Positions 1,471 to 33,612 of a DNA stretch of 64,000 bases are shown piece after piece (position 1 is the stretch's first letter; each line of letters opens with the position of its first letter). A program made the position numbers and the translations under genes. Source of the stretch: an uncultured Clostridia bacterium. Its GTDB lineage: Bacteria > Bacillota > Clostridia > Oscillospirales > Ruminococcaceae. The stretch lies in NCBI GenBank assembly GCA_944386475.1, contig CALXBH010000004.1, positions 1-64,000 of the forward strand, written 5' to 3'. The notes under the pieces were generated by a model, which saw only the letters and a list, made by a program, of their open reading frames with translations, searched no databases and had not been told where the DNA came from.

Positions 1471-1616
1471 AAAGCGTTATTTGACAAATCAAAAATAAGC
1501 GGTTATATTGACAATACGGCAGAACCTTGAAAATTCAATATATCTGCTTATGATGATTTCTTTGGTTTCAACAAATTTGCTCATCTTACTTCCAAACAGA
1601 AAGGTTGTTTGTTGAA

Positions 1617-2858
1617 ATGAAAAAGAAGAAAAAAATCACCCGGGCCCCTAAGGGGTCCGGGCATATCAGGCAACGCAGTGACGGCAGTTATGAAGGGCAA
1701 TATTACTTTGAAGGGGAGCGCCTGAGCATTTATGGAGAATCTTACGATGAAGTTCGGTCAAAACTGAATTTGATCCTAGACGATATCTACCACAAAAACT
1801 ATAGCAAGGGCTGTATGATGCCATTGTGGGTCTATCTTTCCTACTGGGCTAAGAAGTATACAAATCTTCGGCCCGGCAGCGCCCCCAATTATCGCACTTA
1901 TATTGAAGGGCATGTGCAAAATTCCCGCATTGGAAGTACTCCTTTAAAGCTGCTGACCTTGGATGACTTTCAAGCCTTTTTTAATCGTCTGAAAAAACAG
2001 GGACGCCTTGATGGGAAACCAGGAGGCTTGTCACCTAAATCCCTGCGCAATATCTATCAGATGATGAATCAGGCCTTGGACTATGCTGTCAGTCATCTGC
2101 GCTTTCTCACAACTAATCCCATGAACGGAGTAATCCTTCCCAAAGTGCCTAAGCCTAAAATCCAAGTGATGGATCGAGAGGATCAGCGAAAAGTCGAAAC
2201 CTGTATACACCAGGAAGATATAGTGAATGAACTCCTTATCTATATTGACCTGTATACAGGCCTTCGCATCGGTGAGATCACCGCTCTCCAATGGCCGGAT
2301 ATTGCCCCGGATAAAAGCTCTTTCAGGATTACCAAAAGTCTGGAGCGGCTATACAAAGAAGACGCAAAAGAGCGGCCGGAATATATCCCTTTAGACCCTC
2401 AATGTTATGAGAAGCCCACCAAAACCGCCTTGTATTTTGGCCCGCCTAAAACAGAGAGCGGCAAAAGGATTGTGTACTGTATCGAAGCTGTCACGCGGGC
2501 CCTTCAAAAAATTGAAGAGTATCAAATAGAAAATGGCATCTACAATCCAAAAGGGTTTGTGTTCTTAACCAAACGCGGCACGCCTTATGAGCCGGATAAC
2601 TACCGTTCCAAGGTATTCCGTCCGTTTTTGGCAAGGGCAGACTTGGCAGGGTACACCCCGCACTCGCTCCGGCATACCTTTGCCACCCGCGCTTTTGAGC
2701 TGAGCATTGACGCGCCGACGCTGGCCAGCCTTTTAGGCCATGCGCAGTCGTCTACAACCCTCAACATGTACGGCCATTCTAAGGAAAATCACCGAAAAGA
2801 GGCTATGCAAAAACTAAGCGCTATCGAATCAGATTCTTCCGATTCAGAATCTGCATAA
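1617..2858 (+). CDS. int: Tyrosine-type site-specific integrase (phage integrase family, Tn916 Int-like with N-terminal arm-binding domain)
   Basis: The C-terminal catalytic motifs HSLRHTFATRAF...LLGHAQSSTTLNMYGH fit the R-H-R-Y signature, with the LYTGLRIGEITAL box I. Start is ambiguous (TTG at 1605 or ATG at 1617). Confidence 0.85.
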   Translation: MKKKKKITRAPKGSGHIRQRSDGSYEGQYYFEGERLSIYGESYDEVRSKLNLILDDIYHKNYSKGCMMPLWVYLSYWAKKYTNLRPGSAPNYRTYIEGHVQNSRIGSTPLKLLTLDDFQAFFNRLKKQGRLDGKPGGLSPKSLRNIYQMMNQALDYAVSHLRFLTTNPMNGVILPKVPKPKIQVMDREDQRKVETCIHQEDIVNELLIYIDLYTGLRIGEITALQWPDIAPDKSSFRITKSLERLYKEDAKERPEYIPLDPQCYEKPTKTALYFGPPKTESGKRIVYCIEAVTRALQKIEEYQIENGIYNPKGFVFLTKRGTPYEPDNYRSKVFRPFLARADLAGYTPHSLRHTFATRAFELSIDAPTLASLLGHAQSSTTLNMYGHSKENHRKEAMQKLSAIESDSSDSESA

Positions 2859-7558: not shown

Positions 7559-7819
7559 GGTATTTCTTCTCCTTTCCAGGAGGCAATCAAGCGAATTATT
7601 CGTCTAATAGGTAAAACATTTATATCATACCACACTTATCAGAAAAATGCAAAAGTTTCTTACCGGTGAGAAGGCCTGCTAAAAAGGGGATTCTCCCGGC
7701 GGCGGTTTTCAAGGAGGCGAGGTTGAAACCGCCCCCTTTTTTGTGCTATATTGAGGACAGAAAACACACACCAAACCAAAATTTGGATACTGAGAAAACA
7801 TCCGGCAAGGAGGAACCCC

Positions 7820-8590
7820 ATGAAGGACGAAATTATGATTTTGGACAGGGGGCTTCACGACGCCAATCCCGTTGTGTGCGGCCATCAAATCTGCGAGCCG
7901 TCCTATTGGTATCAGTCGGTTCGGGATTATTACCTTTTGCACTTTGTCCTCTCGGGAAAGGGGACGTTTCAAAACCAGAACGCTGTCTACTCCCTGGGAG
8001 AAGGGGATATGTTTGTCATCCGGCCGGGGGAATCCACCCGCTACCAGGCGGATGACAAAGAGCCTTGGCATTATGTGTGGATCGGGTTTACCTCTATGTT
8101 GGACCTGTCGGCGCCTTTGGGCAAAGACGTCCTTCACGTCCCGGAGCTTCGCTATCTTTTTGAGTCGCTTATTTTGGCCAAGGATCTGTCGGACAGCTGC
8201 GAATATTACCTGAGCGCCAAGGTGCTGGAGCTTTTGTTTCATCTGGACAAACAGCTAAAGGAGGATAAGAGCGCGTCGGTTTACGTTAAAAAGGCCGCGG
8301 CCTATATCCGGACGAATTATATGAAGGAAATCACGGTGGCTGGGCTGGCCGGGATGCTTAATCTGGAGCGCTCCTACTTCAGCTTTATTTTTAAAAAGGA
8401 GATGGGGATGTCCCCTCAGCAGTTTCTGATCGACTGCCGCTTAAACAAGGCCGCGGAGCTTTTGTCCCTTTACCGGTATAAGGTGGAGGCGGCGGCCTAT
8501 GCCTGCGGTTATGAAGATCCGTCCGCCTTTTCCAAGATTTTTAAAAAGAAATTCGGCGTTTCCCCTATAAAATACACTAACAATAAATAA
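7820..8590 (+). CDS. AraC family transcriptional regulator (cupin sensor + AraC HTH)
   Basis: The C-terminal AraC HTH signature ACGYEDPSAFSKIFKKKFGVSPIKY and an N-terminal cupin-like domain. Start at MKDEIMI with an AAGGAGG RBS. Sits immediately upstream of the giant surface glycosidase. Confidence 0.8.
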   Translation: MKDEIMILDRGLHDANPVVCGHQICEPSYWYQSVRDYYLLHFVLSGKGTFQNQNAVYSLGEGDMFVIRPGESTRYQADDKEPWHYVWIGFTSMLDLSAPLGKDVLHVPELRYLFESLILAKDLSDSCEYYLSAKVLELLFHLDKQLKEDKSASVYVKKAAAYIRTNYMKEITVAGLAGMLNLERSYFSFIFKKEMGMSPQQFLIDCRLNKAAELLSLYRYKVEAAAYACGYEDPSAFSKIFKKKFGVSPIKYTNNK

Positions 8591-8724
8591 TTTTTATATA
8601 GAAAAACAACATAAGGCCAAGTTTCTCACGCAAACGTCTATTCTCCAAAATCCTGCCGCCTGTTATCATAAAATTACAATAGGCGGCAGATACCCAATGA
8701 ATTTAGGCAGGAGGATAGCGGGTT

Positions 8725-11700
8725 ATGAAAGGAAAACTGAAAAGGACGTTCTGCGTGCTGCTGGCGGGGCTTTTGGGAGTGTCCCTGCTCCCGATGCAGC
8801 TGCTGACAGCGCTGGCAGAGGAGGAGCTTTGCTACGACATCTCCTTTGACAACGAAACCTACACGGCGGACACCAAGGGGATCGACTTTGGCCGCACCGG
8901 CGACCAGTGTAAGCGCGGGCAGAGCTTTATCGCTCTGGAGTACAGCAGCCTTGATTCCGTCCGGGTTAAGGTGACCGCCACCGAAAACCCTGACGACCTG
9001 ACGGCGGAACTGTATCTCTGCGATGAAAATAGCCGGATGCCGGTGGGGGAGGCGCTGGCCACCGCCCAGGTGCCCAAGGAAAGCATTTCCTCCACTGGGT
9101 TCACCGAGCTTTCTATACCGCTGACGTACGATGCTCTGGAAAAGGGGCGGATGTACGCAGTGGTGCTGGGGCAGACAGGAAATTCCGGCTGGTATGGCTG
9201 GTACGGGTCCTATGACAACTCCCATTCCGAGTGGTGGAACCCATCCTTTGTCAATCCCCAGATCAAGCAAAAGGGCTGGGAGGAGGACATCCCCAGCTAT
9301 AAGGTGGACGAACAGGGCCAGTTTATCGACGATTCCCGGTGCGGGGACTACTGGCTTAAGGCGTACTACACGCCCCGGGAGCCGGAGGGGCTCTGTTACG
9401 ATTTGTCCTTTGTCAATGACACCTACACAGCGGACACCAAGGGGATCGACTTTGGCCGCGCCGGCGACCAGTGGAAGCGGGGACAGACCTTCGCCGTGCT
9501 TTCCGACAGCAATCTGGAGTCGGTGGCCGTCAAGGTGACCGCCGTGGAAAATCCCGGCGATCTGACGGCGGAGCTGTATTTGTGCGACAGTGAAACCCAG
9601 ATGCCGGTAGGCGAAGCTTTGGCCACTGCCCAGGTGCCAAAAGAGAGCATTTCTGCCGCCGGGTTTACCGAGCTTACTATCCCCCTGTCCTATGAAGGGA
9701 TGAAGGCGGGGGAGATCTACGCGGTGGTTTTAAGCCAGACGACCAAATCCGGCTGGTACGGCTGGTATGGTTCTTACGATAACTCCAATCCGGAGTGGTG
9801 GAGTCCGTCGTTTGTGAATCCCCAGATCAAGCAGCAGGGGTATGACAAAGATCTTACCAGTATTTTATATGGGGAGGACGGCACCATGACAGACGATTCC
9901 CGGTGCGGAGATTATTGGCTGAAAGCCTTTTACAGCGTGGACGAAGTTTTAACGCCGGAAGAGGATTGGGCTGCCCAATATCAAAAGGATATGGAAAACG
10001 GCGGGCTGTCCTTTTATATGGATAGGCTTTTGGCCCGTCCGGGGGTAGACCCCTCTTTGATTGAGGATTCCGGCCTGATGACAAGAGGGCGCGCCCTTTA
10101 TACCAAAGGCACCAACGACAACGGCCTGATAACCGAGTTTGGCTTTGGCGGCACCATGCGCTATATCAAAGGGGACCGCACCGGCTATACCCTGCAAATT
10201 AACGGCAAAAAAGCCTCCGATTTTACCGAGGACACCTCCAAGCGGGTGGATTATCCCAGCTACTGGACGTCCCAGTACGCCGGGGATGGCCTTGCGGTCA
10301 TCACCAAGCGGTTTATCACCGACAACAACATAGCGGTGACCATCCTGGAGATCACCAACACCACAGCGGAGGAAAAAGACGTTGCGGTCACCATGCTGGT
10401 CCCCTCCTGCAAACAGCGGGAAGGCAACACCCTGGCGGGGACCGCCCGGGTGGATTACAAAAACCTGGAGCTGAAAGCGTCTCTGGACGAAGGCGCTGTA
10501 TCCGGGGAAGGCATTCAGCGGACGTTGACCATCCCGGCGGGGGAAACGGTCTTCCAAAAGGCGCAGATGGGCTTTTTAGACCCCTCGGATGCCGCCACCG
10601 GCGCGGAGTTTGCGGAATACGAGGGTTATACCCCCGAAGAGGCGTTTCAAACCCATGTGCAGGAATATAACTACTGGTGGGTGGAAAACATCCCCAGCAT
10701 GTGGGTGCCTGATCAGTATATTCAGAAGATGATTGCCTACCGCTGGTGGATCGCCCGCATCAATACAGTGGACGCAGGAACCTACAATTATCCCTTCCCC
10801 ACGGCGATGGAAGGGGTGTTCGGCTACAACAACGCCATCGTCAACGCCGTTCCTTGGCAGATAGACGAAACCCGGTATCTCCGCTCGCCGCTGGTGGGCT
10901 ACGGCACCTGGTTTGACGCGGCGGTGGTCGCCGCCGGCGGCATTTACAAGGATAATCCCGCCGGTGTTTGGGGAGTCATGCCCCAGCACTATATCTCCAA
11001 AGCGGGCTGGGAGACTTATAAGGTCCACGGCGGCTCCACCGCGTTTTTAGAGGCCATGGCCGACGTGGGAGCAGGGGACGTAAAAGGCACCCAGGAAACT
11101 TATGATGAAAACGGCGATTTTATCTACGGCATCCAGTACGACGCCTGGGACAACGACACCGCCTCCCTGTCGGTGAGCGGGGATCAGCAGCGGATTGACA
11201 CCGCCTCCTTGGCCTGGGCCAACGCCACAGCGGTCAGCGAGATGTACAAAGCGGCCGGAAATGAGGAGCAGGCGGCGGTTTATCAGCAGATCGCCGATGA
11301 GATCAAAGAGGTGAACCTGGAAAACAGCTGGGACCCTGACAGCCGGCAGTTTTTGATGAAAACAGCGGACGGGGCGTTTATTCCCTTCCGGGACATCAAC
11401 AACTACTATGGCTTTATGGTGGGGATGATCCCCCAAGACGCCGGATATGACGAGGCGCTGCGGGTGTGGGGCGACGAGGAGGAGTTCCCTCTGTGGCCCA
11501 TGTATGTGAGTAACTCCAAGGACTACGAAACCATCCAAAGCGACGACCGGTATACCGACCGCACCCGGAACTTTTCTCCCGGCAACACGGCGATCACCTT
11601 AAAGATGTTTGCAAGCGCCATTAAAAACTATGATGCCGACAATATCACCGGGGAAGCGTTTATGGAGGTGCTTAAGCAGCACACCATGACCTGCTATGTC

Positions 11701-13521
11701 AACCGGAACCTAAACTATCCCGATACCAACGAATTCTGGAACGGGAACGAGGACAGCCCCTACCGCTCCTGGATCCATCACAACTTCCACTCCCAGTACA
11801 ACACCCTGATTATTGAAAATGTCATGGGGATTACCCCCAGGGACGATCAGGTGATTGAGCTTTATCCCATCGACGCGGGCTTTGAAGCGTTTAAAGTATC
11901 GAATATCCGCTATCACGGCAGGGATATCGGCGTGGAGCTGAATGAGGACGGCTACTCCCTGTATGTGGACGGCGAGCTGGTAGCCCAAACCGACCGGCTG
12001 TGCCACTTTACCTGGGATTCTGTCACCGGAAAAGTGACGGTGTTAGATGAAAGCGGCGCGGCGGTGCTTCAAAACACTGCTGTGGCGGATTTCCCCTCGG
12101 CCTATGATGTGACCTATACCGAGGGCCGCGTGGCCGAGCTGATGGAAGCTGCTGTGGAATACGAGCCCGGGGACACCGTGGTGGAAAAAGATCCTCTGGA
12201 ACTGGAGGAAGCGCCTGAGCACACCGGCAGCTACAAGCTGGTGACCGAGGACGGCTCCGACTGGGAGGACAACTTTAACCTGGACTTTGGGGACCAAACC
12301 GGCGACCAGTATAAACGGGCCCAGATGTTTGTGGCTACCGAAGGCGGAATGATGACCGGCGTACAGGTGATGATGAAAAACAAAACCGCCCAAAAGGACG
12401 TAACGGTGGAGCTTTACAGCGCCGGCGAGGACGGCGGGCTGGGACAGTCCCTTGCCTCGACGGTGATCCCGGTGGAGTCGGTGCCCTCGGATATGGGCGT
12501 TGTCACTGCGAAGCTTTCCTACCAGCTGGAAAAAGGCAAGGCCTATTACATCGTCCTGGGCCAGGAGGCCGGGGGCGAGGGGATCTACTGCTGGGCGTTA
12601 AGCGCCAAGGATATGAACACCGGCGTGCAGGCCCGGCAGGAGGGCTATGACGGCGCGCTTAACATGTATAAAATCGAAAACAACGGCAATATCGTGGATG
12701 AGCACGCCTTGGGCGACTATTATCTGGAGGTGTTCTACACAGCGGACGAGGAGCATGTCCACACCTGGTCGGAGGAGTGGACGACAGACGGGAATTCCCA
12801 CTGGCATGTCTGCACCAGCTGCGGGGAGGCGGGAGAGAAAACGCCTCACAGCGGCGGGGAAGCTACCTGTACTGAGAAAGCTACCTGTGCGGTCTGCGGC
12901 GAGGAATACGGCGAAGCAGACAGCACAAACCACGACTACGATACCGCCTTTACGGTGGACAAAGAGCCTACCTGCACCGAACCAGGAGAGCAGTCCCGGC
13001 ACTGCACCCGCTGCGGCGCGAGGACGGATATCACCGAGATCCCCGCTTTAGGCCATGACTATGGTGCGTGGCAGCAAAAGGATGAAGCTACCCATGAGCG
13101 GGTCTGTGAAGCCTGCGGCGAAACGGAAACTCAGGAGCATCAGTGGGATGAGGGGACGGTTACCCAGGAGCCCGCAGTGGATAAAGAAGGGACGATCACC
13201 TATCGCTGCACCGTGTGCGGCGGGGAAAAGACCGAACAGATTCCCGCTCTGGAAGCGCCCGAGTCTCAGGATCCCGGGCAGCAGCCTGATGAGCCCTCCA
13301 GCGGCACGGATGATGAGGAAGAGACGCCGTCTGGTGCCGGCGAGGGAAGCGATAAGCCTGCTTCCGACACTTCCACCGGCGATTCCGTTTCCGGCGGAGA
13401 GGACACTGTTTCGGGCGTCCCCCAGACGGGGAGCGTTTCCGGCGCCTTAGGGGCGGCCTTCCTGCTGGCAGCCGTCTCTTTGGGAGCCGCTGTTTTAGCG
13501 GGGAAAAAGCGCAGAGGATAA
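8725..13521 (+). CDS. Giant (1598 aa) secreted cell-surface protein with signal peptide, two tandem novel ~185-aa domains, an (alpha/alpha)6-barrel glycoside hydrolase-like core of unresolved family, a third degenerate copy of the novel domain, four Cys-rich repeats and a C-terminal sortase-type sorting signal (VPQTG + TM + KKRRG)
   Basis: Signal peptide MKGKLKRTFCVLLAGLLGVSLLP. The repeats 8827-9385 and 9385-9940 are near-identical at DNA level (GIDFGRxGDQxKRGQ...WYGWYGSYDNS...EWWxPSFVNPQIKQ). The central region has six-hairpin glycosidase-like blocks (YRWWIARINTV, WDPDSRQF). The C-terminal region has HxWxxxWxxDxxxHW-CxxCG repeats. The protein ends GVPQTGSVSGALGAAFLLAAVSLGAAVLAGKKRRG. Confidence 0.8.
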   Translation: MKGKLKRTFCVLLAGLLGVSLLPMQLLTALAEEELCYDISFDNETYTADTKGIDFGRTGDQCKRGQSFIALEYSSLDSVRVKVTATENPDDLTAELYLCDENSRMPVGEALATAQVPKESISSTGFTELSIPLTYDALEKGRMYAVVLGQTGNSGWYGWYGSYDNSHSEWWNPSFVNPQIKQKGWEEDIPSYKVDEQGQFIDDSRCGDYWLKAYYTPREPEGLCYDLSFVNDTYTADTKGIDFGRAGDQWKRGQTFAVLSDSNLESVAVKVTAVENPGDLTAELYLCDSETQMPVGEALATAQVPKESISAAGFTELTIPLSYEGMKAGEIYAVVLSQTTKSGWYGWYGSYDNSNPEWWSPSFVNPQIKQQGYDKDLTSILYGEDGTMTDDSRCGDYWLKAFYSVDEVLTPEEDWAAQYQKDMENGGLSFYMDRLLARPGVDPSLIEDSGLMTRGRALYTKGTNDNGLITEFGFGGTMRYIKGDRTGYTLQINGKKASDFTEDTSKRVDYPSYWTSQYAGDGLAVITKRFITDNNIAVTILEITNTTAEEKDVAVTMLVPSCKQREGNTLAGTARVDYKNLELKASLDEGAVSGEGIQRTLTIPAGETVFQKAQMGFLDPSDAATGAEFAEYEGYTPEEAFQTHVQEYNYWWVENIPSMWVPDQYIQKMIAYRWWIARINTVDAGTYNYPFPTAMEGVFGYNNAIVNAVPWQIDETRYLRSPLVGYGTWFDAAVVAAGGIYKDNPAGVWGVMPQHYISKAGWETYKVHGGSTAFLEAMADVGAGDVKGTQETYDENGDFIYGIQYDAWDNDTASLSVSGDQQRIDTASLAWANATAVSEMYKAAGNEEQAAVYQQIADEIKEVNLENSWDPDSRQFLMKTADGAFIPFRDINNYYGFMVGMIPQDAGYDEALRVWGDEEEFPLWPMYVSNSKDYETIQSDDRYTDRTRNFSPGNTAITLKMFASAIKNYDADNITGEAFMEVLKQHTMTCYVNRNLNYPDTNEFWNGNEDSPYRSWIHHNFHSQYNTLIIENVMGITPRDDQVIELYPIDAGFEAFKVSNIRYHGRDIGVELNEDGYSLYVDGELVAQTDRLCHFTWDSVTGKVTVLDESGAAVLQNTAVADFPSAYDVTYTEGRVAELMEAAVEYEPGDTVVEKDPLELEEAPEHTGSYKLVTEDGSDWEDNFNLDFGDQTGDQYKRAQMFVATEGGMMTGVQVMMKNKTAQKDVTVELYSAGEDGGLGQSLASTVIPVESVPSDMGVVTAKLSYQLEKGKAYYIVLGQEAGGEGIYCWALSAKDMNTGVQARQEGYDGALNMYKIENNGNIVDEHALGDYYLEVFYTADEEHVHTWSEEWTTDGNSHWHVCTSCGEAGEKTPHSGGEATCTEKATCAVCGEEYGEADSTNHDYDTAFTVDKEPTCTEPGEQSRHCTRCGARTDITEIPALGHDYGAWQQKDEATHERVCEACGETETQEHQWDEGTVTQEPAVDKEGTITYRCTVCGGEKTEQIPALEAPESQDPGQQPDEPSSGTDDEEETPSGAGEGSDKPASDTSTGDSVSGGEDTVSGVPQTGSVSGALGAAFLLAAVSLGAAVLAGKKRRG

Positions 13522-13622: not shown

Positions 13623-13671
13623 GCAGCGGAAGGCATATCTTTGGATATGCCTTCCGCTTACTATGTTTTTT
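13623..13671 (+). terminator. Rho-independent terminator downstream of the giant surface protein gene
   Basis: GCGGAAGGCATATC-tttg-GATATGCCTTCCGC stem-loop followed by TTACTATGTTTTTT. Confidence 0.6.
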
Positions 13672-16157: not shown

Positions 16158-17069
16158 ATGATGTGTAACGCCGCTGTTGTGGATATCGGCTCCAACACCA
16201 TCCGGATGGTGGCCTATCATCTGGAAAAACAAAGCATAACGGCCTTTTACGAGCAAACGGAAAACGCCGGGCTTTACAGCTACCGCCGGGGGGATCTGCT
16301 TGACGAGGCGGGAACCCGGCTTCTTGTAAACACCGCCCTATCCATGAAGCAGGCGGCTTATAAGGCCGGATGTGAAACTGTCCGCTTCTTTGCCACCGCC
16401 TCTTTGCGGGGACTTTTAAACCTGCCGGACATTCTGCGGCGGTTTGAACAGCGCTGCGGCCTTCCCCCGCGGCTGCTCTCCGCCAGCGAGGAGGCGGAGT
16501 GTGATTTTTTAGGGCTCGCAGCGGAAAACGGCCTTTTGGATTTTACCGGCTGCGATTTAGGCGGCGGCAGCGCCCAGATCGTGCTGGGTAAAAACGGTGG
16601 GCTGCAAAACTGGGTAAGCCTGCCTTTAGGCTGCCTTCGGATGGCAAACCGGTTTGTCAAAGACGTTTTGCCAACGCCCCAGGAGCTTAAGGCTTTAAAA
16701 CAGGAGGTCGCGGCGCTGACGGCCGCCCTCCCCGGGGAGTTTCAAAACGCCCCCGGCGCTGTGCTGCATGTAACCGGCGGCGCCGCCCGAGCCTCCTTAA
16801 AACTCACCCAGCTTGTTTTGGGAAATCAGAGAAGGATCTTTTCCACGGATGATCTTTCCGCCGCCGCACAGTATATCCTTCGGATGGAAAACCCCGCACA
16901 GTGGCTCGCCACCGCCGTCCCCGGGCGGGAGCGGCTGATCCTCCCAGGGATCGCTATTTTACAGGCGATCGCCGCAGCCTGCGGCTGTCAAACCTTCCGC
17001 GTTTACACCTACGGCGTCCGGGAAGGATTTGTTTATAAATTCCTGCTTTCTCAGCCGGAAGGCAGATAA
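16158..17069 (+). CDS. ppx: Ppx/GppA family exopolyphosphatase
   Basis: N-terminal VVDIGSNTIRMVAY actin-like ATPase motif typical of Ppx/GppA. Directly upstream of ppk. Confidence 0.85.
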   Translation: MMCNAAVVDIGSNTIRMVAYHLEKQSITAFYEQTENAGLYSYRRGDLLDEAGTRLLVNTALSMKQAAYKAGCETVRFFATASLRGLLNLPDILRRFEQRCGLPPRLLSASEEAECDFLGLAAENGLLDFTGCDLGGGSAQIVLGKNGGLQNWVSLPLGCLRMANRFVKDVLPTPQELKALKQEVAALTAALPGEFQNAPGAVLHVTGGAARASLKLTQLVLGNQRRIFSTDDLSAAAQYILRMENPAQWLATAVPGRERLILPGIAILQAIAAACGCQTFRVYTYGVREGFVYKFLLSQPEGR

Positions 17070-17123
17070 AAGGCTTTTATACACATTACATACCTTATTG
17101 AAATAATTTTTGAGAAGGGAACT

Positions 17124-19262
17124 TTGGAAATCATGGAACTAGCGGACAGAAAAAACAGTGTTTACGTCAACCGGGAGCTTAGTTGGCTGAAATTCAACCT
17201 CCGGGTGCTGGAGGAATCGGAAGATCCCAACGTTCCTCTGTTTGAACGGCTGCGGTTTGTGTCCATCTTCGCCAGCAATCTGGACGAATTTTACATGGTA
17301 CGGGTGGGGAGCCTGTATGACCAGCTGGTGCTCAACAAGCAGGTATTGGACAGCAAGACGGGTATGTCCAGCAAAGAACAGCTGGCCGCCATCTTTGACC
17401 AGACCAAGCTGATCCTCCCCAGAAAGGATCAGGCTTATGCCCACATCATTGCGGAGATGGGGGAGTATCATGTTGCGCAGGTGGATCCCAACAATTTAAG
17501 CGATGAGGATTACGAGTTTTTAAGCGCCTATTTTGAAAAAGAGGTGCTTCCCTTAACCTCTCCTCAAATCATCGACAAGCACCATCCCTTTCCCTTTTTA
17601 AAAAGCAAGGAGCTTTATATCGGCGTGCACATTGCCGGGAAAAACGAAAACACCGTGCGGCTTGGAATCATTCCCGCCAGCGGCAGCTTCAGCCGGGTGG
17701 TGTTTCTTCCCTCCCGGGACGGCATCCGCTTTATGCTGGTGGAGGATCTGTTGTGCCTGTTTGCCGACCGCATCTTTTTAAAGCATAAAATTCAGGATAA
17801 AACCATCTTCCGCATCACCCGCAACGCCGACCTGAATGTGGAGGATTCCACCTATGATTTTGACCTGGATTACCGGGAGGCCATGACCGAGCTTTTAAAA
17901 AAGCGCAAAAAGCTGGCTCCGGTTCGGCTGGAGCTGTTAAACGCCATTAACGTCAATATGATGAACTATTTGTGCGAGCACTTAGAGCTCTCCCACGAGC
18001 AGGTGTTTGTCAACCGTTCCCCCTTGGATTTCTCCTTTATGTCCGCCCTGGAGGGAAAACTCCAAAAGGAAAAGGATCTGTTCTTTAAGCCGGTCAGCCC
18101 CCAGAAATCCCCCTACATCAACCCCGACGAGGCGATGATCCCCCAGATCCAGCGGCGGGATCTGCTGCTTCATTATCCATACAACAGCTTTGACCCGTTT
18201 ATCCGGCTGCTGAATGAAGCGGCGGAGGATCCCAAGGTGGTTTCAATCCAGATCACCCTCTACCGGGTGGCCAAGGATTCCAAGGTGGTCAACGCCCTGA
18301 TTAAGGCGGCGGAAAACGGCAAAGAGGTCAAGGCGGTGGTGGAGCTTCGGGCCCGCTTTGACGAGGAAAACAACATCGACTGGTCCAAGCAGATGGAGGA
18401 AGCCGGCGTCAATGTGATGTACGGCCTGGACGAATACAAAGTCCACTCCAAGCTGCTGCTGATCACCCGGAAGTCCGGCAACCACATTGAATACATCACC
18501 CAGATCGGTACCGGCAACTACAACGAAAAAACCGCCAAGCTTTACACCGACCTGTGCCTGATGACCGCCAACAAAGAGATCGGCGCGGACGCCTCGGTGG
18601 TGTTTAACAGCCTGTTTATGGGCAACATGGTGGAGTCCAGCGAGCATCTTTTGGTAGCGCCCCTTTGCTTTAAAAGCAAGATCATCGAGCTGATCGACAA
18701 CGAGATCGCCTTTGCCAAGCAGGGCCAGCCCGCCAGCATCCAGCTGAAGATGAATTCGGTCAGCGACCGGGTGCTCATCGACAAACTGATTGAAGCCTCC
18801 AAAGCGGGGGTGGAGGTCAAGATGGTGGTGCGGGGAATCCTCTGTATGCGCACCGGCGTGGAGGGTGAAACCGAAAACATCCAGGCCATCAGCATTGTAG
18901 GCCGCTTTTTGGAACACAGCCGCATTTACGTCTTCGGTGTAGGCGACCGGCAGAAGATCTATATCGCCTCCGCCGACTTTATGACCCGAAACACCGAACG
19001 CCGGGTAGAGGTGGCCGCTCCTATCTATGACGAACGGCTGAAAGAGGAGCTTCTCTCGATCCTGGATGTTTTGTTCCGGGATAACGTCAAAGCCCGCATC
19101 CAGCTTCCTGACGGCAGCTACACCTACCGCCGGAACAACCAGGAGCCGTTAGACGCCCAGGCGTATTTTTACCGGAAGGCCTACGAGCAGGCCAAGGAGC
19201 GCTTTTATACAGCGCCCCAGAAAAAGAAATTCCATTTCCCGTTTTTTCACAAAGACCGGTAA
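17124..19262 (+). CDS. ppk: Polyphosphate kinase 1
   Basis: 712 aa. N-terminal NRELSWLKFNLRVLEE, two PLD-like HKD domains (VHSKLLLI; EHSRIYVFG). Canonical PPK1 architecture. Confidence 0.9.
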   Translation: MEIMELADRKNSVYVNRELSWLKFNLRVLEESEDPNVPLFERLRFVSIFASNLDEFYMVRVGSLYDQLVLNKQVLDSKTGMSSKEQLAAIFDQTKLILPRKDQAYAHIIAEMGEYHVAQVDPNNLSDEDYEFLSAYFEKEVLPLTSPQIIDKHHPFPFLKSKELYIGVHIAGKNENTVRLGIIPASGSFSRVVFLPSRDGIRFMLVEDLLCLFADRIFLKHKIQDKTIFRITRNADLNVEDSTYDFDLDYREAMTELLKKRKKLAPVRLELLNAINVNMMNYLCEHLELSHEQVFVNRSPLDFSFMSALEGKLQKEKDLFFKPVSPQKSPYINPDEAMIPQIQRRDLLLHYPYNSFDPFIRLLNEAAEDPKVVSIQITLYRVAKDSKVVNALIKAAENGKEVKAVVELRARFDEENNIDWSKQMEEAGVNVMYGLDEYKVHSKLLLITRKSGNHIEYITQIGTGNYNEKTAKLYTDLCLMTANKEIGADASVVFNSLFMGNMVESSEHLLVAPLCFKSKIIELIDNEIAFAKQGQPASIQLKMNSVSDRVLIDKLIEASKAGVEVKMVVRGILCMRTGVEGETENIQAISIVGRFLEHSRIYVFGVGDRQKIYIASADFMTRNTERRVEVAAPIYDERLKEELLSILDVLFRDNVKARIQLPDGSYTYRRNNQEPLDAQAYFYRKAYEQAKERFYTAPQKKKFHFPFFHKDR

Positions 19263-19338: not shown

Positions 19339-22300
19339 TCAGGCTTTTTTCCGCCGGAAAAGAAGCACTGCCCCTCCGCCTGCGGCGAGGATCGCTACTG
19401 TGAGCATCGTCGCCCAGGGCAGTTCGCCGGTGGTGGGATTCTCTGTGCCGCCGGAACCGCCGGGCGTCTGGGTATCATCCTGGCCGCCGGGGGTCTGGGT
19501 GTCGTCTCCGCCCGGAGTTTCATTATCCCCGGGGGTCTCGTTGCCGCCGGGGGTCTCGTTGCCGCCGGGGGTGTTATCCCCGCCGGAGGGCTCGGAATCC
19601 GTATCGCCCGGCTGGTCATCGCCGCCGGGGTTATCGTCCGAAGACGTGCTGTCATCCTTTACGGTGATCGTGATGGAATCGGATACGGGGGCCAGGTAAT
19701 TGTTATCCGCCGCTTTGGTGACGGTGATGGTGGCCTCGCCCGCTCCCACAAGGGTGACAACGCCGTTTTGATCCACCGCAGCCACGGCGGTGTCGCTGCT
19801 CTCCCAGGTGGCCGCACCGGAGCCGCTGCCGCCGGTGGCGGTCAGGGTGACCGTGCCGTCAGACAGCTGACAGGTCATATCCTCCTGCTCGATGGCGATA
19901 GCCTGCTGGGCTGCCTTTTCTACCGTCACGGTAACAGAGTCGGAGGCAACACCGTCGCTGGCGGTAATTACCGCTTCGCCCGCTCCCACAATGGCCACGG
20001 TTCCGTTTTCATCCACTGTCACAACATGGGTGTCCGAGCTTTCCCAGTTAACCGTTCCCTGTGCGTCGGAGACGGTGAGGGTAAAGCCCTCGTCCCCGAA
20101 GGTGACCGTCCGGTCGCCGCCGTTAATGGTCAAGTCGGCCTGCTCGCCGTTCTCGACCATCCGGCGCTCGCTTTCCTCGGGGCCCCAGCCGGTAAAATAG
20201 GATTTGCCGCTCTGGGTGGTCAGGTAGATCCGGTGGGAGACAATGCCGTCCTCTCTGGCCCAGATGTTTAAGGTGTGGACACCGGGCTCATCCACCGTGA
20301 TGGTCCAGCGGGATTCACTCTTCTCCCAGCGCATATTTCCTTCGTGGGTGGCGTAGTTGGTGTGGCACTGCCACTCGCCGTCCAGCCCCACATGGTAGGA
20401 GTCGGAATCGTCGATGGGATGGCTGGACAGGGTATGGATATAATAGGTGCCCGCCGTCTGGAAATTGATCTTAAAGTTAAGCTGGGGTGCGTATTCCGAA
20501 AGCTTTTCGCTGTTGTGGGCCGCCGTGGCCGAGGTCGTACCCGCCAGCCACTGGGTTCCCATATCCGGCTGCACCGTCATGGCGTTGCCGCCGTCGTTCA
20601 TCCGCCAGTAGTGGGTGGAGCAGTCTTCAAAGTTTGCATACTCGGACTGTTCCATCGCCGAGGCGATGTCGATGATGACCTCGCCGTTTTGCTCCAAAAA
20701 CTCCGCCGGACGCTGGCTTGTGTCCTCGGACACCATAACCATTACATAGCGCACCAGCAGCGGATTTTCTTCCGATACAATCTCTAATACGCCCTTGCCT
20801 TCCGCCGTGCCGGTGACCGACGCCGTACCGTCGGCATTGACCTGAAGGCTGATGGCCTCGTCATCCGAGGCGATGCTCCAGCTGACAGCCCTGTCGGCGC
20901 TCAGCGGCAGCTCCTGATCGGGAGCGATCATCACATAATCGGTGACCTCAGTTTCCTCCTCACCCTGATACACGGTGATGGTCTCAGGCTCTGCCTGTTC
21001 TGCCAGCTGGGGCAGAGAGGATTCCAACGGCGCCTCGTAGGAGATGGTGTTATAGCTCTCCGGCGGGCCCAGATAGGAGGTGCGCTCCCCGCCGGTGTTA
21101 ATGACGATCCGGTCAAAGGCCATGCCCGCATCCGACTGATAAACCACCAGGGTGTGGACGCCCGGCTCGTCAATGGTGATATTGAAAGTGAGTTTTTCTA
21201 TATTTTCCAGCGTACCCCGAATCCAGGGTTCCTCTACATTTACCGCCGTGCTGATACCCCGCAGCAGGGTGGGCTCTTCGCCCTCCAGGCCGATGGCGGT
21301 GCGGCAGGTCTTGCGCACCCCTTCATCGGTGTTGCCCTCGTTTAAGGTGGGGATACGGTAGAAGGTGCCGGTAAAGGTGCCGGTGGATTCAAAGTAGATG
21401 TCGTATTTTAACTGGGCGGAATTTTCCGCGAAGTTGCTGTCAATCCGGGGAGAGATGTCCGGGTAGACCTTCACGGAATCCCCGCTTCTGCCCCAGTTTT
21501 CGATTACTTTCCACTCGCTGCCGTTTTTAGCGACGCTTTCGGTATAATGCTCCGCTTCGATGGCCACATAGCCGTTGGCCTCCGCGTAGGTCCTCTCCCC
21601 CAATTGGGCGGTGGATTTAAACGCGGTGAGCTGGAAGGTCTTGCTGAAGCCCTTATCGTCCTTCACGGTGATGGTGCCGGTGTTTTCCCCGTCGGCAGCT
21701 TTATCCCAGTCAATGCCGATCCAGATCCGGTCTTCCACCTCTACGGTGCCGGAGGTCTTGGAGGGCACGATAAAGTCGTCGCTTACCTCGATGGTCCAGT
21801 TGTTGGCGGCCGCCTCCCGGCTGTAGATATCGATAAACCGGCGGCTGTCCTGCAAGGAAGAAAACTCCAGGGTGATGTTGTCGGTGGGAAGGCTCTGCCC
21901 CTCGCACACCGCGCCGATGCCGGCTACCTGGTCGCTTTCATCCACGGTGGCAAACGTCCGCAGGCCCACCATGGTGGGGATGTTTTTCACATAAGGATTG
22001 ATGATCCCATCCCACTTGCCGTCCTGCATGACCTTGTTGTAGTAGATTCGGTCGTTTACCATATTATTGTACGCCTGGGTGGACAGATCTTCATATTTTT
22101 CCACGCTGGCGTAGCGGCCTTGTTCTGCATAGAGCTGGTTTTTCTGCCAGTAGATGTTCATCGCCAGATTAAAGGCGCTTCCCCGGATGGGATAATACAC
22201 CATCTGGTAGAAGGCGTCCTTGCGGTCCGCGTCCAGATTGTTGTAGATCGCTTCTGCCCGCTCGACCAGCGCGTTTAGCTGATCCACCCGGATCTGGCCC

Positions 22301-24042
22301 TCGTCGCCGTTGCTCACCACGCTGTACGGCTCATCAGGGTTGGAATCCTCATACCCCTGAAATTCCGGACGCTTGGCGATGTTGTACTGATAGTACTTGG
22401 TCATAATATCGGCAATGTCCGCCGCGGTGGCGTCGTCCACCAAAAAGTCCCGCTTGGCAATCTTCTCAACATAGGTGTGGATATTGGTGTCGTCGTACTG
22501 ATCGATATCCCACGCCATCTCCATCATAAACTCCAAGGATATCTCGGAGGGCTTGATATCGCCTACGTTGAGGATCCAGTATTCCTGCATGCCGGTGTCA
22601 TAAGCCTTGCGCAGCTCCTCATACATCTGCACCAAAGGCGTGGTGTTCAGCCACAGATAACTTGTATGATCCACGCCCCAGTAGGAGACATGGTAATAAA
22701 CGCCGGAGCCGCCGCTGCGCTCCCGTTCCGCATCGGTGGGAACCTGACGCAGGTAACCGTGGTTATCTTCCGCCCACATCAGGATGACGTCGTCCGGGAT
22801 CTGCACACCCGGTGTGTTTTCGTTGCCGTTATAAAATTCCGCCGCCTCTTTGTAGGGGATAAAGGCCTGGGGGATTTCCTCGGCGGGTTTACCCAGCACG
22901 TCGCTTAAAATCTCCCGCTGGACGTTGATGACTTCCTGCAAAACCGCGATCTTGTCCGCCAGGGTGGGATTGGTCAGCCCCCCGAACTCCATGCCCGAGT
23001 CGTGGATACCCCGCATACCGATGTTCCAGATCGCCTCAAAATCCTTGTTTTTCTCCACCCGCTCCCGCCAGTAGGCTTGCAGAGCCTCGGGGTTGATGGT
23101 GTAGTCATAAACGGGAACGCCGTTTGCATCGTACTGATCCCGATGGGCGTTGGCCCACCGGCTCCACTCCCCTTCATTGTTGCGTAAAAGCATCTCGCAG
23201 TGGGAAGCGCCCATGACGATGCCGTAGCTGTCGGCCAGCTTCGCGTTGATGGAGATCCCGTTTTCGTCCTCGTACAGGTTGAACGCGTCGCTGTAGTTGT
23301 GCATGGCGGGCCACAGGGTGTTGGCCTTTAAGCGCAGCAAAAGCTCAAACACCTTTTCATAGGCCCCTGCGTTGGGAGAGCCGGGGGTCTGTTCGTCCTT
23401 AAACTGCTCCGCCCAGGTGGTGAAGTTGCGTTCGTCGTTGATAAAGATGCCACGGTATTTTACCGAAGGCTCCCCTTCCACTTTCAGGGGGTCAGACAGT
23501 AAAATCTCATCCTGCACCTTTGGGGTCACGTCCGCCCACCAGTAATAGGGGGATACGCCGATCTGCTCGGAGACGTCATAGATCCCGTAGATGGTCCCCC
23601 GCTTGTCGCTGCCCGCGATGACCAGCGCCTCCGCCACACCGTCCACCGGGTTTTCTACCCGCTTGATGACGTAGGACTCCCACTTGCCGGTGATGTCCTT
23701 AGCCTCATCCAGCTTTCCGTCTTCCATCAGCTGTTTAATCACCGGACTCTGTTCGATCGAGCCCACAATGACGGCGTATTCGCTTAAATCCTCCGTGGAG
23801 TTTTCCACAGAAGGAGTCGTTTCGGTCACCCGGTTGACGTCCTCCTGCAAGTCTCCCGCCGCCCGGATGATCTGAGGATAATCCTCGTCCGAAACAAAGA
23901 TGTCCGCCGCCGTTCCCTCATAAAACAGCGGAAAACCCTCTTCGCTGGCGGAAGCGGTGGACAAAGCGCCTAACGGCACCGTCGTGGCGATCATCGCCGT
24001 AGCTAAAATCGCCGATACCAGCCTTCGCATGTTTGCACCCAT
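19339..24042 (-). CDS. Giant (1567 aa) secreted glycoside hydrolase, GH115-like (putative xylan alpha-1,2-glucuronidase), with C-terminal tandem Ig-like (Big_2) domains, a Gly/Pro/Thr-rich linker and a sortase-type sorting signal (NPTTG + TM + RRKK)
   Basis: Signal peptide MGANMRRLVSAILATAMIATTVPLGALSTASA. The block SDKRGTIYGIYDVSEQIGVSPYYWWADV matches the recalled GH115 N-terminal signature. C-terminal Big_2-like repeats (VVTVDENGTVAIVGAGEAVITAS; AVAAVDQNGVVTLVGAGEATITVT). Linker PGGNETPGGNETPGDNETPGG. Ends ENPTTGELPWATMLTVAILAAGGGAVLLFRRKKA. Confidence 0.75.
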   Translation of the reverse strand: MGANMRRLVSAILATAMIATTVPLGALSTASASEEGFPLFYEGTAADIFVSDEDYPQIIRAAGDLQEDVNRVTETTPSVENSTEDLSEYAVIVGSIEQSPVIKQLMEDGKLDEAKDITGKWESYVIKRVENPVDGVAEALVIAGSDKRGTIYGIYDVSEQIGVSPYYWWADVTPKVQDEILLSDPLKVEGEPSVKYRGIFINDERNFTTWAEQFKDEQTPGSPNAGAYEKVFELLLRLKANTLWPAMHNYSDAFNLYEDENGISINAKLADSYGIVMGASHCEMLLRNNEGEWSRWANAHRDQYDANGVPVYDYTINPEALQAYWRERVEKNKDFEAIWNIGMRGIHDSGMEFGGLTNPTLADKIAVLQEVINVQREILSDVLGKPAEEIPQAFIPYKEAAEFYNGNENTPGVQIPDDVILMWAEDNHGYLRQVPTDAERERSGGSGVYYHVSYWGVDHTSYLWLNTTPLVQMYEELRKAYDTGMQEYWILNVGDIKPSEISLEFMMEMAWDIDQYDDTNIHTYVEKIAKRDFLVDDATAADIADIMTKYYQYNIAKRPEFQGYEDSNPDEPYSVVSNGDEGQIRVDQLNALVERAEAIYNNLDADRKDAFYQMVYYPIRGSAFNLAMNIYWQKNQLYAEQGRYASVEKYEDLSTQAYNNMVNDRIYYNKVMQDGKWDGIINPYVKNIPTMVGLRTFATVDESDQVAGIGAVCEGQSLPTDNITLEFSSLQDSRRFIDIYSREAAANNWTIEVSDDFIVPSKTSGTVEVEDRIWIGIDWDKAADGENTGTITVKDDKGFSKTFQLTAFKSTAQLGERTYAEANGYVAIEAEHYTESVAKNGSEWKVIENWGRSGDSVKVYPDISPRIDSNFAENSAQLKYDIYFESTGTFTGTFYRIPTLNEGNTDEGVRKTCRTAIGLEGEEPTLLRGISTAVNVEEPWIRGTLENIEKLTFNITIDEPGVHTLVVYQSDAGMAFDRIVINTGGERTSYLGPPESYNTISYEAPLESSLPQLAEQAEPETITVYQGEEETEVTDYVMIAPDQELPLSADRAVSWSIASDDEAISLQVNADGTASVTGTAEGKGVLEIVSEENPLLVRYVMVMVSEDTSQRPAEFLEQNGEVIIDIASAMEQSEYANFEDCSTHYWRMNDGGNAMTVQPDMGTQWLAGTTSATAAHNSEKLSEYAPQLNFKINFQTAGTYYIHTLSSHPIDDSDSYHVGLDGEWQCHTNYATHEGNMRWEKSESRWTITVDEPGVHTLNIWAREDGIVSHRIYLTTQSGKSYFTGWGPEESERRMVENGEQADLTINGGDRTVTFGDEGFTLTVSDAQGTVNWESSDTHVVTVDENGTVAIVGAGEAVITASDGVASDSVTVTVEKAAQQAIAIEQEDMTCQLSDGTVTLTATGGSGSGAATWESSDTAVAAVDQNGVVTLVGAGEATITVTKAADNNYLAPVSDSITITVKDDSTSSDDNPGGDDQPGDTDSEPSGGDNTPGGNETPGGNETPGDNETPGGDDTQTPGGQDDTQTPGGSGGTENPTTGELPWATMLTVAILAAGGGAVLLFRRKKA

Positions 24043-24262: not shown

Positions 24263-25156
24263 ATGTCTATCATCTATCGTTACTCCGAGCGGACTTTTTA
24301 CTCTCATCACATACGGGACAACAATCCTGACAGCGACCGGTTCCCCCTGCACGTTCATGATGTTCATGAGTTTTGCTATTTCATTGCCGGAGGCGGCCGC
24401 TTTTTTATCGAGTCCAGCGCTTACGATCTTTATCCCGGCTGCATCCTTCTGATGCGGGCAGGGGAAGCCCACCGCCTTCAGGTGAATACCTCCATGCCCT
24501 ACGAACGGATCACCGTGGAGTTTTCCCCCTCCCTGTTCAGTGATTTTGATCTGCAAAGCCAGCTGACCGAAGCGTTTGTTAAACGCCCTGCCGGGCAGTT
24601 TAACCTGTACACCCCCGAGATGCTGGACAGGGAGCTTACCCACGCCTGCATGCGACTTTTATCCGCCCAGTTCCAGGTGATTCCCGATCAGCAAAAGCGC
24701 ATGACGATGATTGCCTGTTTATCCCCTGTCCTATTGGAGATAAACAGGGCGTTTCTGACCCGCATCAGCGCCCAGCCCTTTCAGGACGAACGGACGGTCA
24801 CCGCCGTCAGCCAGTTAATCGAATACATCAACGCCCACCTGTGTGAAAAGCTGGATTTAAACCTTTTGGCTCAGCGCTTTTTTATAAGCAAAACCCACCT
24901 GAACAATCAGTTTAAACAGGTGACCGGCTGCACCATCTGGGAATACATTATTATCAAGCGCCTGGTGCTGGCGCGAAAGTATATCCGGGACGGCATGTCC
25001 GCTGGGGAAGCCGCCCTTTCCAGCGGATGGAGCGATTATTCCTCCTTTTACCGCAGCTATAAAGCCCGGTTTGGCGTCTCTCCTTTGTCCGACAAGCAAA
25101 GCAATCTGGCAAAGCTCCGGCCGGAGTATGACATCCGCAGGGAGCTTCCGGAATAA
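24263..25156 (+). CDS. AraC family transcriptional regulator (cupin + HTH), divergent from the GH115-like gene
   Basis: N-terminal cupin (FPLHVHDVHEFCYFIAGGG) and C-terminal AraC HTH (SSGWSDYSSFYRSYKARFGVSP). Confidence 0.85.
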   Translation: MSIIYRYSERTFYSHHIRDNNPDSDRFPLHVHDVHEFCYFIAGGGRFFIESSAYDLYPGCILLMRAGEAHRLQVNTSMPYERITVEFSPSLFSDFDLQSQLTEAFVKRPAGQFNLYTPEMLDRELTHACMRLLSAQFQVIPDQQKRMTMIACLSPVLLEINRAFLTRISAQPFQDERTVTAVSQLIEYINAHLCEKLDLNLLAQRFFISKTHLNNQFKQVTGCTIWEYIIIKRLVLARKYIRDGMSAGEAALSSGWSDYSSFYRSYKARFGVSPLSDKQSNLAKLRPEYDIRRELPE

Positions 25157-30125: not shown

Positions 30126-30262
30126 GGGTTACCTCCGAATGTTAAGCCGATGATACATCTATAAAAATAAGTGTATCACAATACCCGGTGGATTTCAACA
30201 AAATCCACCGGGAAACGGCAAAACTCCGGCTGGTAATATGCGCCAGAAAACCTTGGCTGTAT

Positions 30263-30850: not shown

Positions 30851-30901
30851 AAAACTGGCTGCGCTCCTTTCTGTATCGCAGAAGGGGGATGTACCGGCGA
30901 A

Positions 30902-32308: not shown

Positions 32309-32343
32309 AGGATGTGTCGCCTCCTGTTTATTGGTGTTCGCCT

Positions 32344-33387: not shown

Positions 33388-33612
33388 GGCGTGCTTCCTT
33401 CCTTTCAAAGATCGGATAAAAACAGGGAATCGCTATAATCTATGAACAAAACCGCCAAAAAAGTATAACAAAAGCTGTTTCAACAAGTTGTTAAATGAAG
33501 AATTGTGAATATTATTAATATAATTTATATAAAAAGTTGATTACTTTTATTGATATCTTCTAAAATTAATGTACAATATAGTTGTCAAATTTACTAATTA
33601 GGAGGGTGTGCT

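Follow-up and report, generated by a model that had tools for sequence, protein, structure and literature searches.

Breakdown of the Hyp-linked beta-L-arabino-oligosaccharides on dietary plant glycoproteins begins with GH121 enzymes. To our knowledge, nearly all work on these enzymes concerns Bifidobacterium and Xanthomonas, and beta-L-arabinobiosidase is the sole activity that we know CAZy to record for the family. HypBA2 of Bifidobacterium longum (PDB 6M5A) has three essential residues, Glu383, Asp515, and Glu713, which do not vary across GH121, and the F5/8-type-C domains of GH121 enzymes have been suggested to bind substrate (PMC7263609). A second described system is the IgA protease (IgAse) of Thomasclavelia ramosa, whose "periscope" domains were described in 2025 and for which 2His2Cys and 3Cys1His zinc sites have been predicted and SAXS gave an elongated shape (PMC12415215, PMC12237041). 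The choice-of-anchor R family (NCBIfam NF041539) is catalogued without a Pfam model, a solved structure, or an assigned function.

The window, by which we mean the whole 64,000-nucleotide stretch of DNA analysed, encodes what is probably a secreted, sortase-anchored, multimodular GH121 enzyme (beta-L-arabinobiosidase type) of a gut Clostridia bacterium, acting by the mechanism proposed below. Most of the novelty claimed in the initial annotation falls, because the core and the Cys-rich stalk belong to known families and the repeat to a catalogued one. A distinct, wall-anchored Clostridia clade would extend GH121 capacity to other gut Firmicutes.

Locus and module order

A single ORF of 1598 aa was confirmed (Table 1), and its product is identical to an entry (P0001) in a public protein collection. 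Among genomes, the closest is that of Candidatus Metaruminococcus caecorum, which has a GH121 ortholog of 73% identity. The order of the AraC-type regulator gene followed by the GH121 gene is kept on an ortholog-bearing contig (L001), and a megablast search against plasmids gave no match.

From the N-terminus, the protein comprises a signal peptide, two choice-of-anchor-R-like lectin-like beta-sandwiches, and the GH121 core, followed by a third beta-sandwich, five Cys/His units, an acidic linker, and a VPQTG sorting signal. The description of a giant surface glycosidase holds, as signal peptide, C-terminal VPQTG, hydrophobic stretch, and KKRRG tail are all present, and so does the picture of non-catalytic repeated beta-sandwich modules flanking a core that is of (alpha/alpha)6 type by alignment to HypBA2. 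The C-terminus has the sortase-substrate pattern xPxTG, hydrophobic segment, and basic tail (VPQTG, SVSGALGAAFLLAAVSLGAAVLAG, KKRRG), and its scores against the curated LPXTG HMMs are below cutoff (12.4 versus 15.9 bits for TIGR01167, 10.6 versus 20 bits for PF00746). As read from these residues, VPQTG is a variant sorting motif comparable to the SPQTG of IgAse, and we infer that the protein is anchored to the wall.

In the proposed mechanism, the C-terminus would be attached to peptidoglycan by sortase, and the linker and a rigid zinc-stabilised "periscope" array would keep the enzyme clear of the wall. The three beta-sandwiches beside the pocket may bind or position the glycoprotein substrate, as F5/8-type-C modules are presumed to do in HypBA2, and the pocket with E696, D811, and E1003 would free beta-L-arabinofuranose disaccharide from Hyp-linked arabino-oligosaccharides of plant hydroxyproline-rich glycoproteins. 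Expression is probably under the control of the upstream AraC-type regulator.

Table 1. Features of the GH121 gene and its surroundings, in window coordinates.
Feature	Position	Strand	Basis
AraC-family transcriptional regulator, directly 5' of the GH121 gene	7751..8590	+	Pfam AraC_binding and HTH_18/HTH_AraC
Shine-Dalgarno AGGAGG, 10 nt ahead of ATG	8709..8714	+	read from sequence
CDS, 1598 aa, complete, probable multimodular GH121 enzyme	8725..13521	+	ORF list
Signal peptide, aa 1-31, MKGKLKR and hydrophobic stretch, ...ALA|EEE (putative cleavage site)	8725..8817	+	sequence
Choice-of-anchor-R-like lectin-like beta-sandwich, copy 1, aa 33-220	8821..9384	+	
Choice-of-anchor-R-like domain, copy 2, aa 221-408	9385..9948	+	70% aa and 71% nt identity to copy 1; NF041539 22.4 bits
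GH121 core, aa 409-1165	9949..12219	+	NF041578; PDB 6m5a_A; 5mqr; Pfam PF22422
Codon E696, equivalent to HypBA2 Glu383	10810..10812	+	TAMEGVFGYNN aligned to HypBA2 SIEGVLGYNN
Codon D811, equivalent to HypBA2 Asp515 (proposed acid/base)	11155..11157	+	WDNDTAS aligned to GNDADAV
Codon E1003, equivalent to HypBA2 Glu713 (proposed nucleophile)	11731..11733	+	DTNEFWNG aligned to QNEFWNE
Choice-of-anchor-R-like domain, copy 3, aa 1166-1343	12220..12753	+	NF041539 30.6 bits alone; tree; conservation comparison
Cys/His-rich array, five CxxC units, aa 1344-1510, predicted zinc-stabilised stalk	12754..13254	+	Cys map; 127 homologs; AF2; 9qa6_A
Linker, low-complexity acidic Ser/Gly/Pro/Asp/Glu, aa 1511-1564	13255..13416	+	sequence
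Sortase-type sorting signal: VPQTG (aa 1565-1569), hydrophobic stretch, KKRRG	13417..13518	+	sequence; sub-threshold LPXTG HMM matches
Intrinsic-terminator-like hairpin 3' of the stop, 15-bp stem, then T-rich tail	13625..13658	+	sequence
GH115, giant surface enzyme	19339-24042		
Alpha-L-arabinofuranosidase-like giant surface protein	33613-38259		

The GH121 catalytic core

The family of the catalytic core, left unresolved in the initial annotation, is established by two matches that place it clearly in GH121 on sequence grounds. The HypBA2 model NF041578 covers aa 450-1140 (E 1.5e-115), and the HypBA2 structure (6m5a_A) matches over ~690 residues (E 2.2e-98; HypBA2 chain residues 94-855), in a sequence alignment that spans the N-terminal beta-sandwich, the (alpha/alpha)6 barrel, and the C-terminal beta-sandwich. 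Pfam PF22422 also matches within the core, as does PDB 5mqr (E 3.6e-10), which is annotated as a GH142 enzyme (PMC7263609). The three essential acidic residues are kept here and in the orthologs P0002-P0019 wherever the motif search found them.

The core is ~35% identical to HypBA2, and the whole protein scores 387 bits against the NF041578 equivalog cutoff of 3200 bits; by this measure, the protein is a member of the family and not an equivalog. Because the identity is this low and the cutoff far from reached, the exact substrate could differ from that of HypBA2, and the substrate named in our mechanism is the one that homology suggests. A core with a specificity other than Hyp-Ara3 might instead act on beta-L-arabinofuranosyl groups of arabinogalactan-proteins, gum arabic, or pectic side chains, within the locus's set of surface enzymes. 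Such an altered specificity would suit the distance from HypBA2, the GH115 and alpha-L-arabinofuranosidase-like giant surface enzymes also encoded in the window, the absence of a GH127 partner among the scanned ORFs, and the position of the Clostridia-type GH121 clade apart from actinobacterial homologs. We nevertheless consider it unlikely, as the three essential residues are all retained together with the motifs around them and the CAZy records known to us list only beta-L-arabinobiosidase for GH121.

The repeated beta-sandwich domain

The domain described in the initial annotation as two tandem repeats with a third, diverged copy is present as such: the N-terminal repeats are 188 aa each with a period of 564 nt, all the motifs quoted for them are found, and the third copy matches a profile of the copies with E 7e-83. 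The accompanying statement that the domain could not be placed in a family is contradicted by NF041539, which scores 56.8 bits over three stretches of the whole protein (cutoff 30) and 22.9, 22.4, and 30.6 bits for copies 1, 2, and 3 alone. By these profile scores, the repeat is a domain of a catalogued family to which no function is assigned. Since a Pfam search of the isolated repeats was empty at E<=10, the domain is without a Pfam family; a word-indexed homolog search with repeat 1 alone returned no match, even to its own protein, which reflects a limit of the index and not absence.

The three-copy profile recovered 293 clusters among 1.84 billion representative proteins, 94 of them at E<=1e-10, and 18 of the 63 scanned profile relatives also match NF041539. 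Domain partners among these 63 include many GHs as well as subtilases and ZmpB-type metalloproteases, and many members of the family consist solely of tandem copies of the domain. In every ortholog of the Clostridia type, the GH121 core is flanked by the domain, with one or two copies N-terminal, one C-terminal, or all C-terminal (P0015), and F5/8-type-C domains take its place in actinobacterial GH121s. Among orthologs that carry the domain, the C-terminal anchor varies between LPXTG-like signals (P0001, P0002, P0008, P0010, P0013), SLH domains (P0009, P0015), a dockerin (P0014), and cell-wall-binding-type repeats (P0003, P0004), alternatives of the kind that the "choice-of-anchor" label calls for. 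Most NF041539 family members match only profile positions ~17-135, whereas the N-terminal subtype that accompanies GH121 bears an additional conserved loop rich in aromatic residues, NPxWW...NPQxxQxG (mean of 7.5 aromatics in ~41 residues), and a DxSRCGDxWLK end.

AlphaFold2 (AF2) modelled the repeat with high confidence as a lectin-like beta-sandwich (pLDDT 95.9). The nearest hits of a fold search are a phage 812 baseplate protein (9euf_0) and the lectin-like domain of Clostridioides difficile Cwp84 (PDB 4CI7), and CBMs score lower. Each is a beta-sandwich carried by a Gram-positive surface protein or a phage receptor-binding protein, no ligand has been demonstrated for either, and their identity to the repeat is 12-14%. 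A search of the repeat profile against PDB sequences gave only noise (E>0.4), so the likeness holds at the level of fold only. The tripod protein of phage 812 has a leg domain that has been likened to Cwp84 (PMC13433997); the chain found here, 9EUF chain 0, is deposited as a DUF4815 protein and may be another protein.

The repeat had been proposed as a new carbohydrate-binding module, with a match to an existing CBM or Ig-like family named as a result that would speak against it. The domain does fall in a catalogued family, but it matches neither an existing CBM family nor an Ig-like family by sequence, and carbohydrate binding remains plausible. Occurrence of the family with proteases too argues against one conserved glycan ligand. 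Tentatively, the GH121-associated subtype with its NPxWW...NPQxxQxG loop might be a new CBM family for beta-L-arabinofuranosylated Hyp glycans of the extensin/AGP type. If so, this would be the first function for the whole choice-of-anchor R family, with its at least 293 representative clusters; the high-confidence model and clear enzymatic context make the domain tractable as a candidate CBM family.

The domains could also be structural or enzyme-shaping, packing on the core to stabilise or space it instead of serving as CBMs. Cwp84 offers a precedent, as its lectin-like domain has been discussed as deepening the protease cleft; this closest characterised fold has no sugar-binding region of the usual kind, and the authors who described it weigh a non-lectin role. 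The joining of the family to unrelated enzymes such as subtilases and ZmpB-type metalloproteases, the lack of a sequence match to any CBM family, and the family-wide invariant residues F23, G24, R32, Q34, F36, Y112, W127, and G175, which fit a structural core, point the same way. However, three copies whose number and position vary among orthologs are typical of independent accessory modules, many relatives are arrays of the domain alone, the conserved aromatic-rich loop looks like a sugar-binding platform, and the core already has N- and C-terminal beta-sandwiches of its own by alignment to HypBA2. On balance, we think a purely structural role improbable.

The two N-terminal copies were reported to be more than 85% identical in DNA; the actual value is 71% (402/564), reaching 77% in the best 300 nt, and no 60-nt block exceeds 83%. 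Across the three codon positions the copies are 80/84/49% identical, and they differ by dN 0.21 and dS 1.2-1.5, with dN/dS ~0.15. The tree places each of copies 1 and 2 with its counterparts in the orthologs and not with the other, the two forming separate clades across P0001-P0003, and copy 2 shares 77% identity with copy 2 of the ortholog P0002 against 70% with copy 1 of its own protein. Copy 3, which is 36%/33% identical to copies 1/2 by pairwise global alignment (33%/32% in a 37-sequence alignment), falls in a separate old clade and lacks eight residues of the aromatic loop. The dS and the grouping of copies 1 and 2 with orthologous copies establish that the duplication is old, and these sequence comparisons indicate that it has been under purifying selection and predates the split from the orthologs. 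Independent assemblies with proteins of the same cluster share the two-copy N-terminal architecture, as do the orthologs P0002, P0003, P0006, P0008-P0010, and P0013. The recent duplication or ongoing homogenisation by gene conversion proposed for the repeats, or an assembly artefact, can be rejected as extremely improbable on the 71% identity with its 49% at third positions, the dS, the tree, and the independent assemblies, despite some 60-nt blocks of 80-83% identity and one identical run of 30 nt, the longest found.

The Cys/His-rich array and comparison with known systems

The Cys-rich CxxC region was correctly recognised as zinc-ribbon-like, but it has five units (Cys 1363, 1388, 1427, 1461, and 1495) where four were counted. 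We found 127 homologs of the array, and AF2 predicts an all-beta structure for it (pLDDT 94.5). Its profile matches PDB 9qa6_A (E 2.8e-15; chain residues 848-975 and 1087-1142), which establishes homology to the predicted zinc-binding domains (ZBDs) of T. ramosa IgAse. By sequence pattern, there are four candidate ligands in each of four units and three in the fifth, in which a fourth is not clear. By analogy, the array would bind zinc, a property that is likewise only predicted in the IgAse homologs. We consider disulfide-rich units less likely, given the three-Cys units with a conserved His and the lack of reported disulfides in IgAse. The "periscope" fold of one IgA protease turns up widely as a stalk module of surface proteins in Clostridia, glycosidases included.

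The array and ZBD1/ZBD2 of IgAse (CTD2/CTD4; PDB 9QA6) have the same H...HW.C..C and C...C..C...H patterns of candidate ligands in sequence, the array is like them predicted to consist of all-beta hairpin units without a hydrophobic core, and in both proteins the units stand just ahead of a linker and an xPQTG sortase signal (VPQTG here, SPQTG in IgAse). The attached enzyme differs, being a glycosidase here and an M64 metalloprotease in IgAse. Unlike in IgAse, the five units are consecutive, with no intervening beta-barrel domain, and the last is without a clear fourth ligand.

The B. longum HypBA2 cluster has GH127 (HypBA1-type), GH43, and sugar ABC-transporter genes, whereas none of these was among the larger window ORFs in a non-exhaustive Pfam scan. 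As predicted for the protein described here, HypBA2 is an extracellular, wall- or membrane-associated, multimodular enzyme; its host is a Bifidobacterium and not a Clostridia bacterium. HypBA2 carries F5/8-type-C (CBM32-like) and other C-terminal modules, whereas the protein described here carries choice-of-anchor-R domains and a Cys/His stalk.

GH121 core and its locus

The surface-glycosidase ORF reported in the initial annotation is real, and its product is a GH121 enzyme that is probably wall-anchored. Its accessory modules all fall in families already catalogued or recently described; their combination had not been described before. The novelty left is functional: the choice-of-anchor-R-like repeat domain may be a new carbohydrate-binding module (CBM). 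Public data hold an identical protein (P0001), and a 73% identical ortholog, P0002, is encoded in a Candidatus Metaruminococcus caecorum MAG (class Clostridia). The C-terminus consists of VPQTG followed by a hydrophobic stretch and then KKRRG; an SPQTG sortase motif likewise ends the Thomasclavelia ramosa IgA protease (IgAse; PMC12237041, PMC12415215).

The family of the catalytic core, initially regarded as unresolved, is GH121: aa 450-1140 match NCBIfam NF041578 (HypBA2 beta-L-arabinobiosidase, E 1.5e-115), and the core matches the solved structure of HypBA2 from Bifidobacterium longum (PDB 6M5A, chain residues 94-855, E 2.2e-98). The core also matches PDB 5mqr (E 3.6e-10), annotated as a GH142 enzyme (PMC7263609). 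HypBA2 Glu383, Asp515, and Glu713 are essential for activity and invariant in GH121 (PMC7263609); their counterparts are E696 (TAMEGVFGYNN), D811 (WDNDTAS), and E1003 (DTNEFWNG), which are kept in orthologs wherever the motif search located them. The NF041578 score of 387 bits is far under the equivalog cutoff of 3200 bits and the protein is ~35% identical to HypBA2; on these grounds we assign it to GH121 and regard arabinobiosidase specificity as probable but unproven.

Features of the GH121 locus and its surroundings in the window
Feature	Coordinates	Strand	Details
Phage-integrase-family tyrosine recombinase	1605-2858	+	low-GC left end
Imperfect inverted repeat, 17 nt	8653-8689	+	AraC-GH121 intergenic region; CTGCCGCCTGTTATCAT / ATTACAATAGGCGGCAG, 3-nt spacer
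GH121 protein ORF	8725-13521	+	1598 aa
Ppx/GppA phosphatase and polyphosphate kinase gene pair	16158-19262	+	between GH121 and GH115 loci
Giant anchored GH115 surface protein	19339-24042	-	1567 aa; GH115 catalytic and C-terminal domains, Big_2 repeats
AraC-family regulator	24263-25156	+	adjoins GH115 gene, divergently oriented
Cell-wall-related gene cluster	28752-33408, 38340-39338	-	GH25 muramidase, three-PG_binding_1-domain protein, SH3_3 + Peptidase_C39-like protein
Giant alpha-L-arabinofuranosidase-like protein	33613-38259	+	1548 aa; ASD1-type domain

An AraC-family regulator lies directly upstream of the GH121 gene on the same strand, an arrangement kept in the ortholog contig. The GH121 gene has an AGGAGG site ahead of its ATG and a strong terminator-like hairpin after its stop codon. 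The intergenic region between the two genes showed no consensus sigma-70 promoter, and the inverted repeat there may be an operator or attenuator; the ortholog region has nearby motifs in common (GAAAAACAACAT, CGCAAA..CTATTCT) without the full inverted repeat. The window ORFs scanned included no GH127 or sugar ABC transporter, and the repeat domain and Cys/His units are absent from every other window ORF, the GH115 protein among them. The latter ends in a PTTGE motif, a hydrophobic stretch, and RRKKA, and the arabinofuranosidase-like protein combines three Big_4 domains with a sialidase-like CBM and a hydrophobic anchor at the C-terminus. Along with the GH121 protein, these two suggest a surface enzyme set for arabinose-rich plant glycans. 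The left end of the window has a GC content of 0.44-0.48 (~0.55 elsewhere), and the recombinase there may point to a mobile-element boundary.

Age and family of the repeat domain

Two tandem 188-aa repeats (aa 33-220 and 221-408; period 564 nt) occupy the N-terminus as annotated, and the diverged third copy follows the core at aa 1166-1343 (E 7e-83 against the profile built from the copies), being 36%/33% identical to copies 1/2 pairwise and 33%/32% in a 37-sequence alignment. The >85% nucleotide identity first ascribed to the tandem copies was wrong: 402 of 564 positions (71%) are identical, the best 300 nt reach 77%, and 60-nt blocks never exceed 83%. Identity by codon position is 80/84/49%, with dN 0.21, dS 1.2-1.5, and dN/dS ~0.15. 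A neighbour-joining tree was built from 37 copies of the domain, taken from 15 proteins. In it, the tandem copies of P0001, P0002, and P0003 (copies 1 and 2) cluster by position and not by protein (window copy 2 is 77% identical to P0002 copy 2 and 70% to its own copy 1), and the C-terminal copies branch off as a deep clade of their own. On this evidence the duplication is old and kept by selection, not recent or undergoing homogenisation. An assembly artefact is ruled out, since the two-copy architecture recurs in independent assemblies.

Pfam has no model that matched the isolated repeats, but the domain does fit a known family, contrary to the first reading: NCBIfam NF041539 (choice-of-anchor R) matches all three copies, with 56.8 bits for the whole protein, 30.6 for copy 3 alone, and 22-23 for copies 1 and 2 alone (cutoff 30). 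An exhaustive search of 1.84 billion representative proteins with a three-copy profile retrieved 293 clusters at E<=1e-3 and 94 at E<=1e-10, the majority of matches spanning only profile positions ~17-135, and tandem arrays were common. NF041539 also matched 18 of 63 scanned relatives. Domains that accompany the repeat domain in such proteins are, among others, GH63/MGH1-like, trehalase-like, GH121, GH92, GH9, lacto-N-biosidase, subtilases, and ZmpB-type proteases. Many of the relatives P0036-P0064 consist of 3-6 tandem copies of a ~120-aa core domain and contain nothing else recognisable, an arrangement that looks adhesin- or lectin-like.

Cys-rich region

Five CxxC motifs, one more than the four repeats annotated, lie in aa 1344-1510, in units of two kinds, H..W...D...HW.C..C and (C)T...C..CG...H. 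The region is predicted to form strings of beta-hairpins (pLDDT 94.5), and its 127 homologous proteins are mostly Clostridia metagenome fragments, with dockerin, cohesin, and other surface modules among the partners. Its profile matches two regions of IgAse (PDB 9QA6, E 2.8e-15), which two 2025 papers name ZBD1/ZBD2 or CTD2/CTD4; their 2His2Cys or 3Cys1His zinc sites are predicted only, with validation pending according to the authors, their SAXS shape is elongated, a "periscope" stalk role was proposed, and they are described as lacking structural homologs (PMC12237041, PMC12415215). This homology makes the original description as extracellular zinc-ribbon-like units essentially right, but the module is not new, having been described in IgAse.

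Fold of the repeat domain and GH121 architectures

No solved structure was linked to the repeat domain by sequence when the profile was compared with PDB sequences. Fold comparison ranked the phage 812 baseplate protein (9euf_0, DUF4815; 13.5), PBCV-1 capsid protein P1v1 (13.4), the mycobacteriophage Bxb1 tail spike (12.5), and the Cwp84 lectin-like domain (11.7) highest, followed by PHR domains (about 9), CBM15 and the BT0996-C CBM (8.4 and 8.1), and CBM22, CBM35, CBM29, and CBM6 (6.5-8); Foldseek agreed with this ranking. The closest folds have no known ligand (PMC4089489, PMC13433997); the tripod protein of phage 812, possibly a different protein from chain 9euf_0, has a leg domain that has been likened to Cwp84 (PMC13433997). 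An aromatic-rich loop, GWYGWYxSxD..NPxWW....NPQxxQxG (mean 7.5 aromatics per ~41 residues), is conserved in the N-terminal subtype and shorter in the C-terminal subtype. Given this loop, and with the F5/8-type-C modules of HypBA2 as an analogue, the repeat domain may plausibly bind carbohydrate.

All Clostridia-type GH121 orthologs carry the repeat domain as one or two N-terminal copies and one C-terminal copy, except P0015, whose three copies are all C-terminal to the core. Anchors vary (LPXTG-like, SLH, dockerin, cell-wall-binding repeats), which matches the "choice-of-anchor" idea. Across orthologs P0002-P0015, the GH121 and choice-of-anchor-R core is joined to very different C-terminal modules by lineage: the Cys/His stalk with xPQTG occurs only in P0001 and P0002, and others have FIVAR with LPXTG-like signals, SLH, dockerin, cell-wall-binding-type repeats, or BspA-type LRR. 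Actinobacterial GH121s, in contrast, have F5/8-type-C domains where the Clostridia-type orthologs have the repeat domain.
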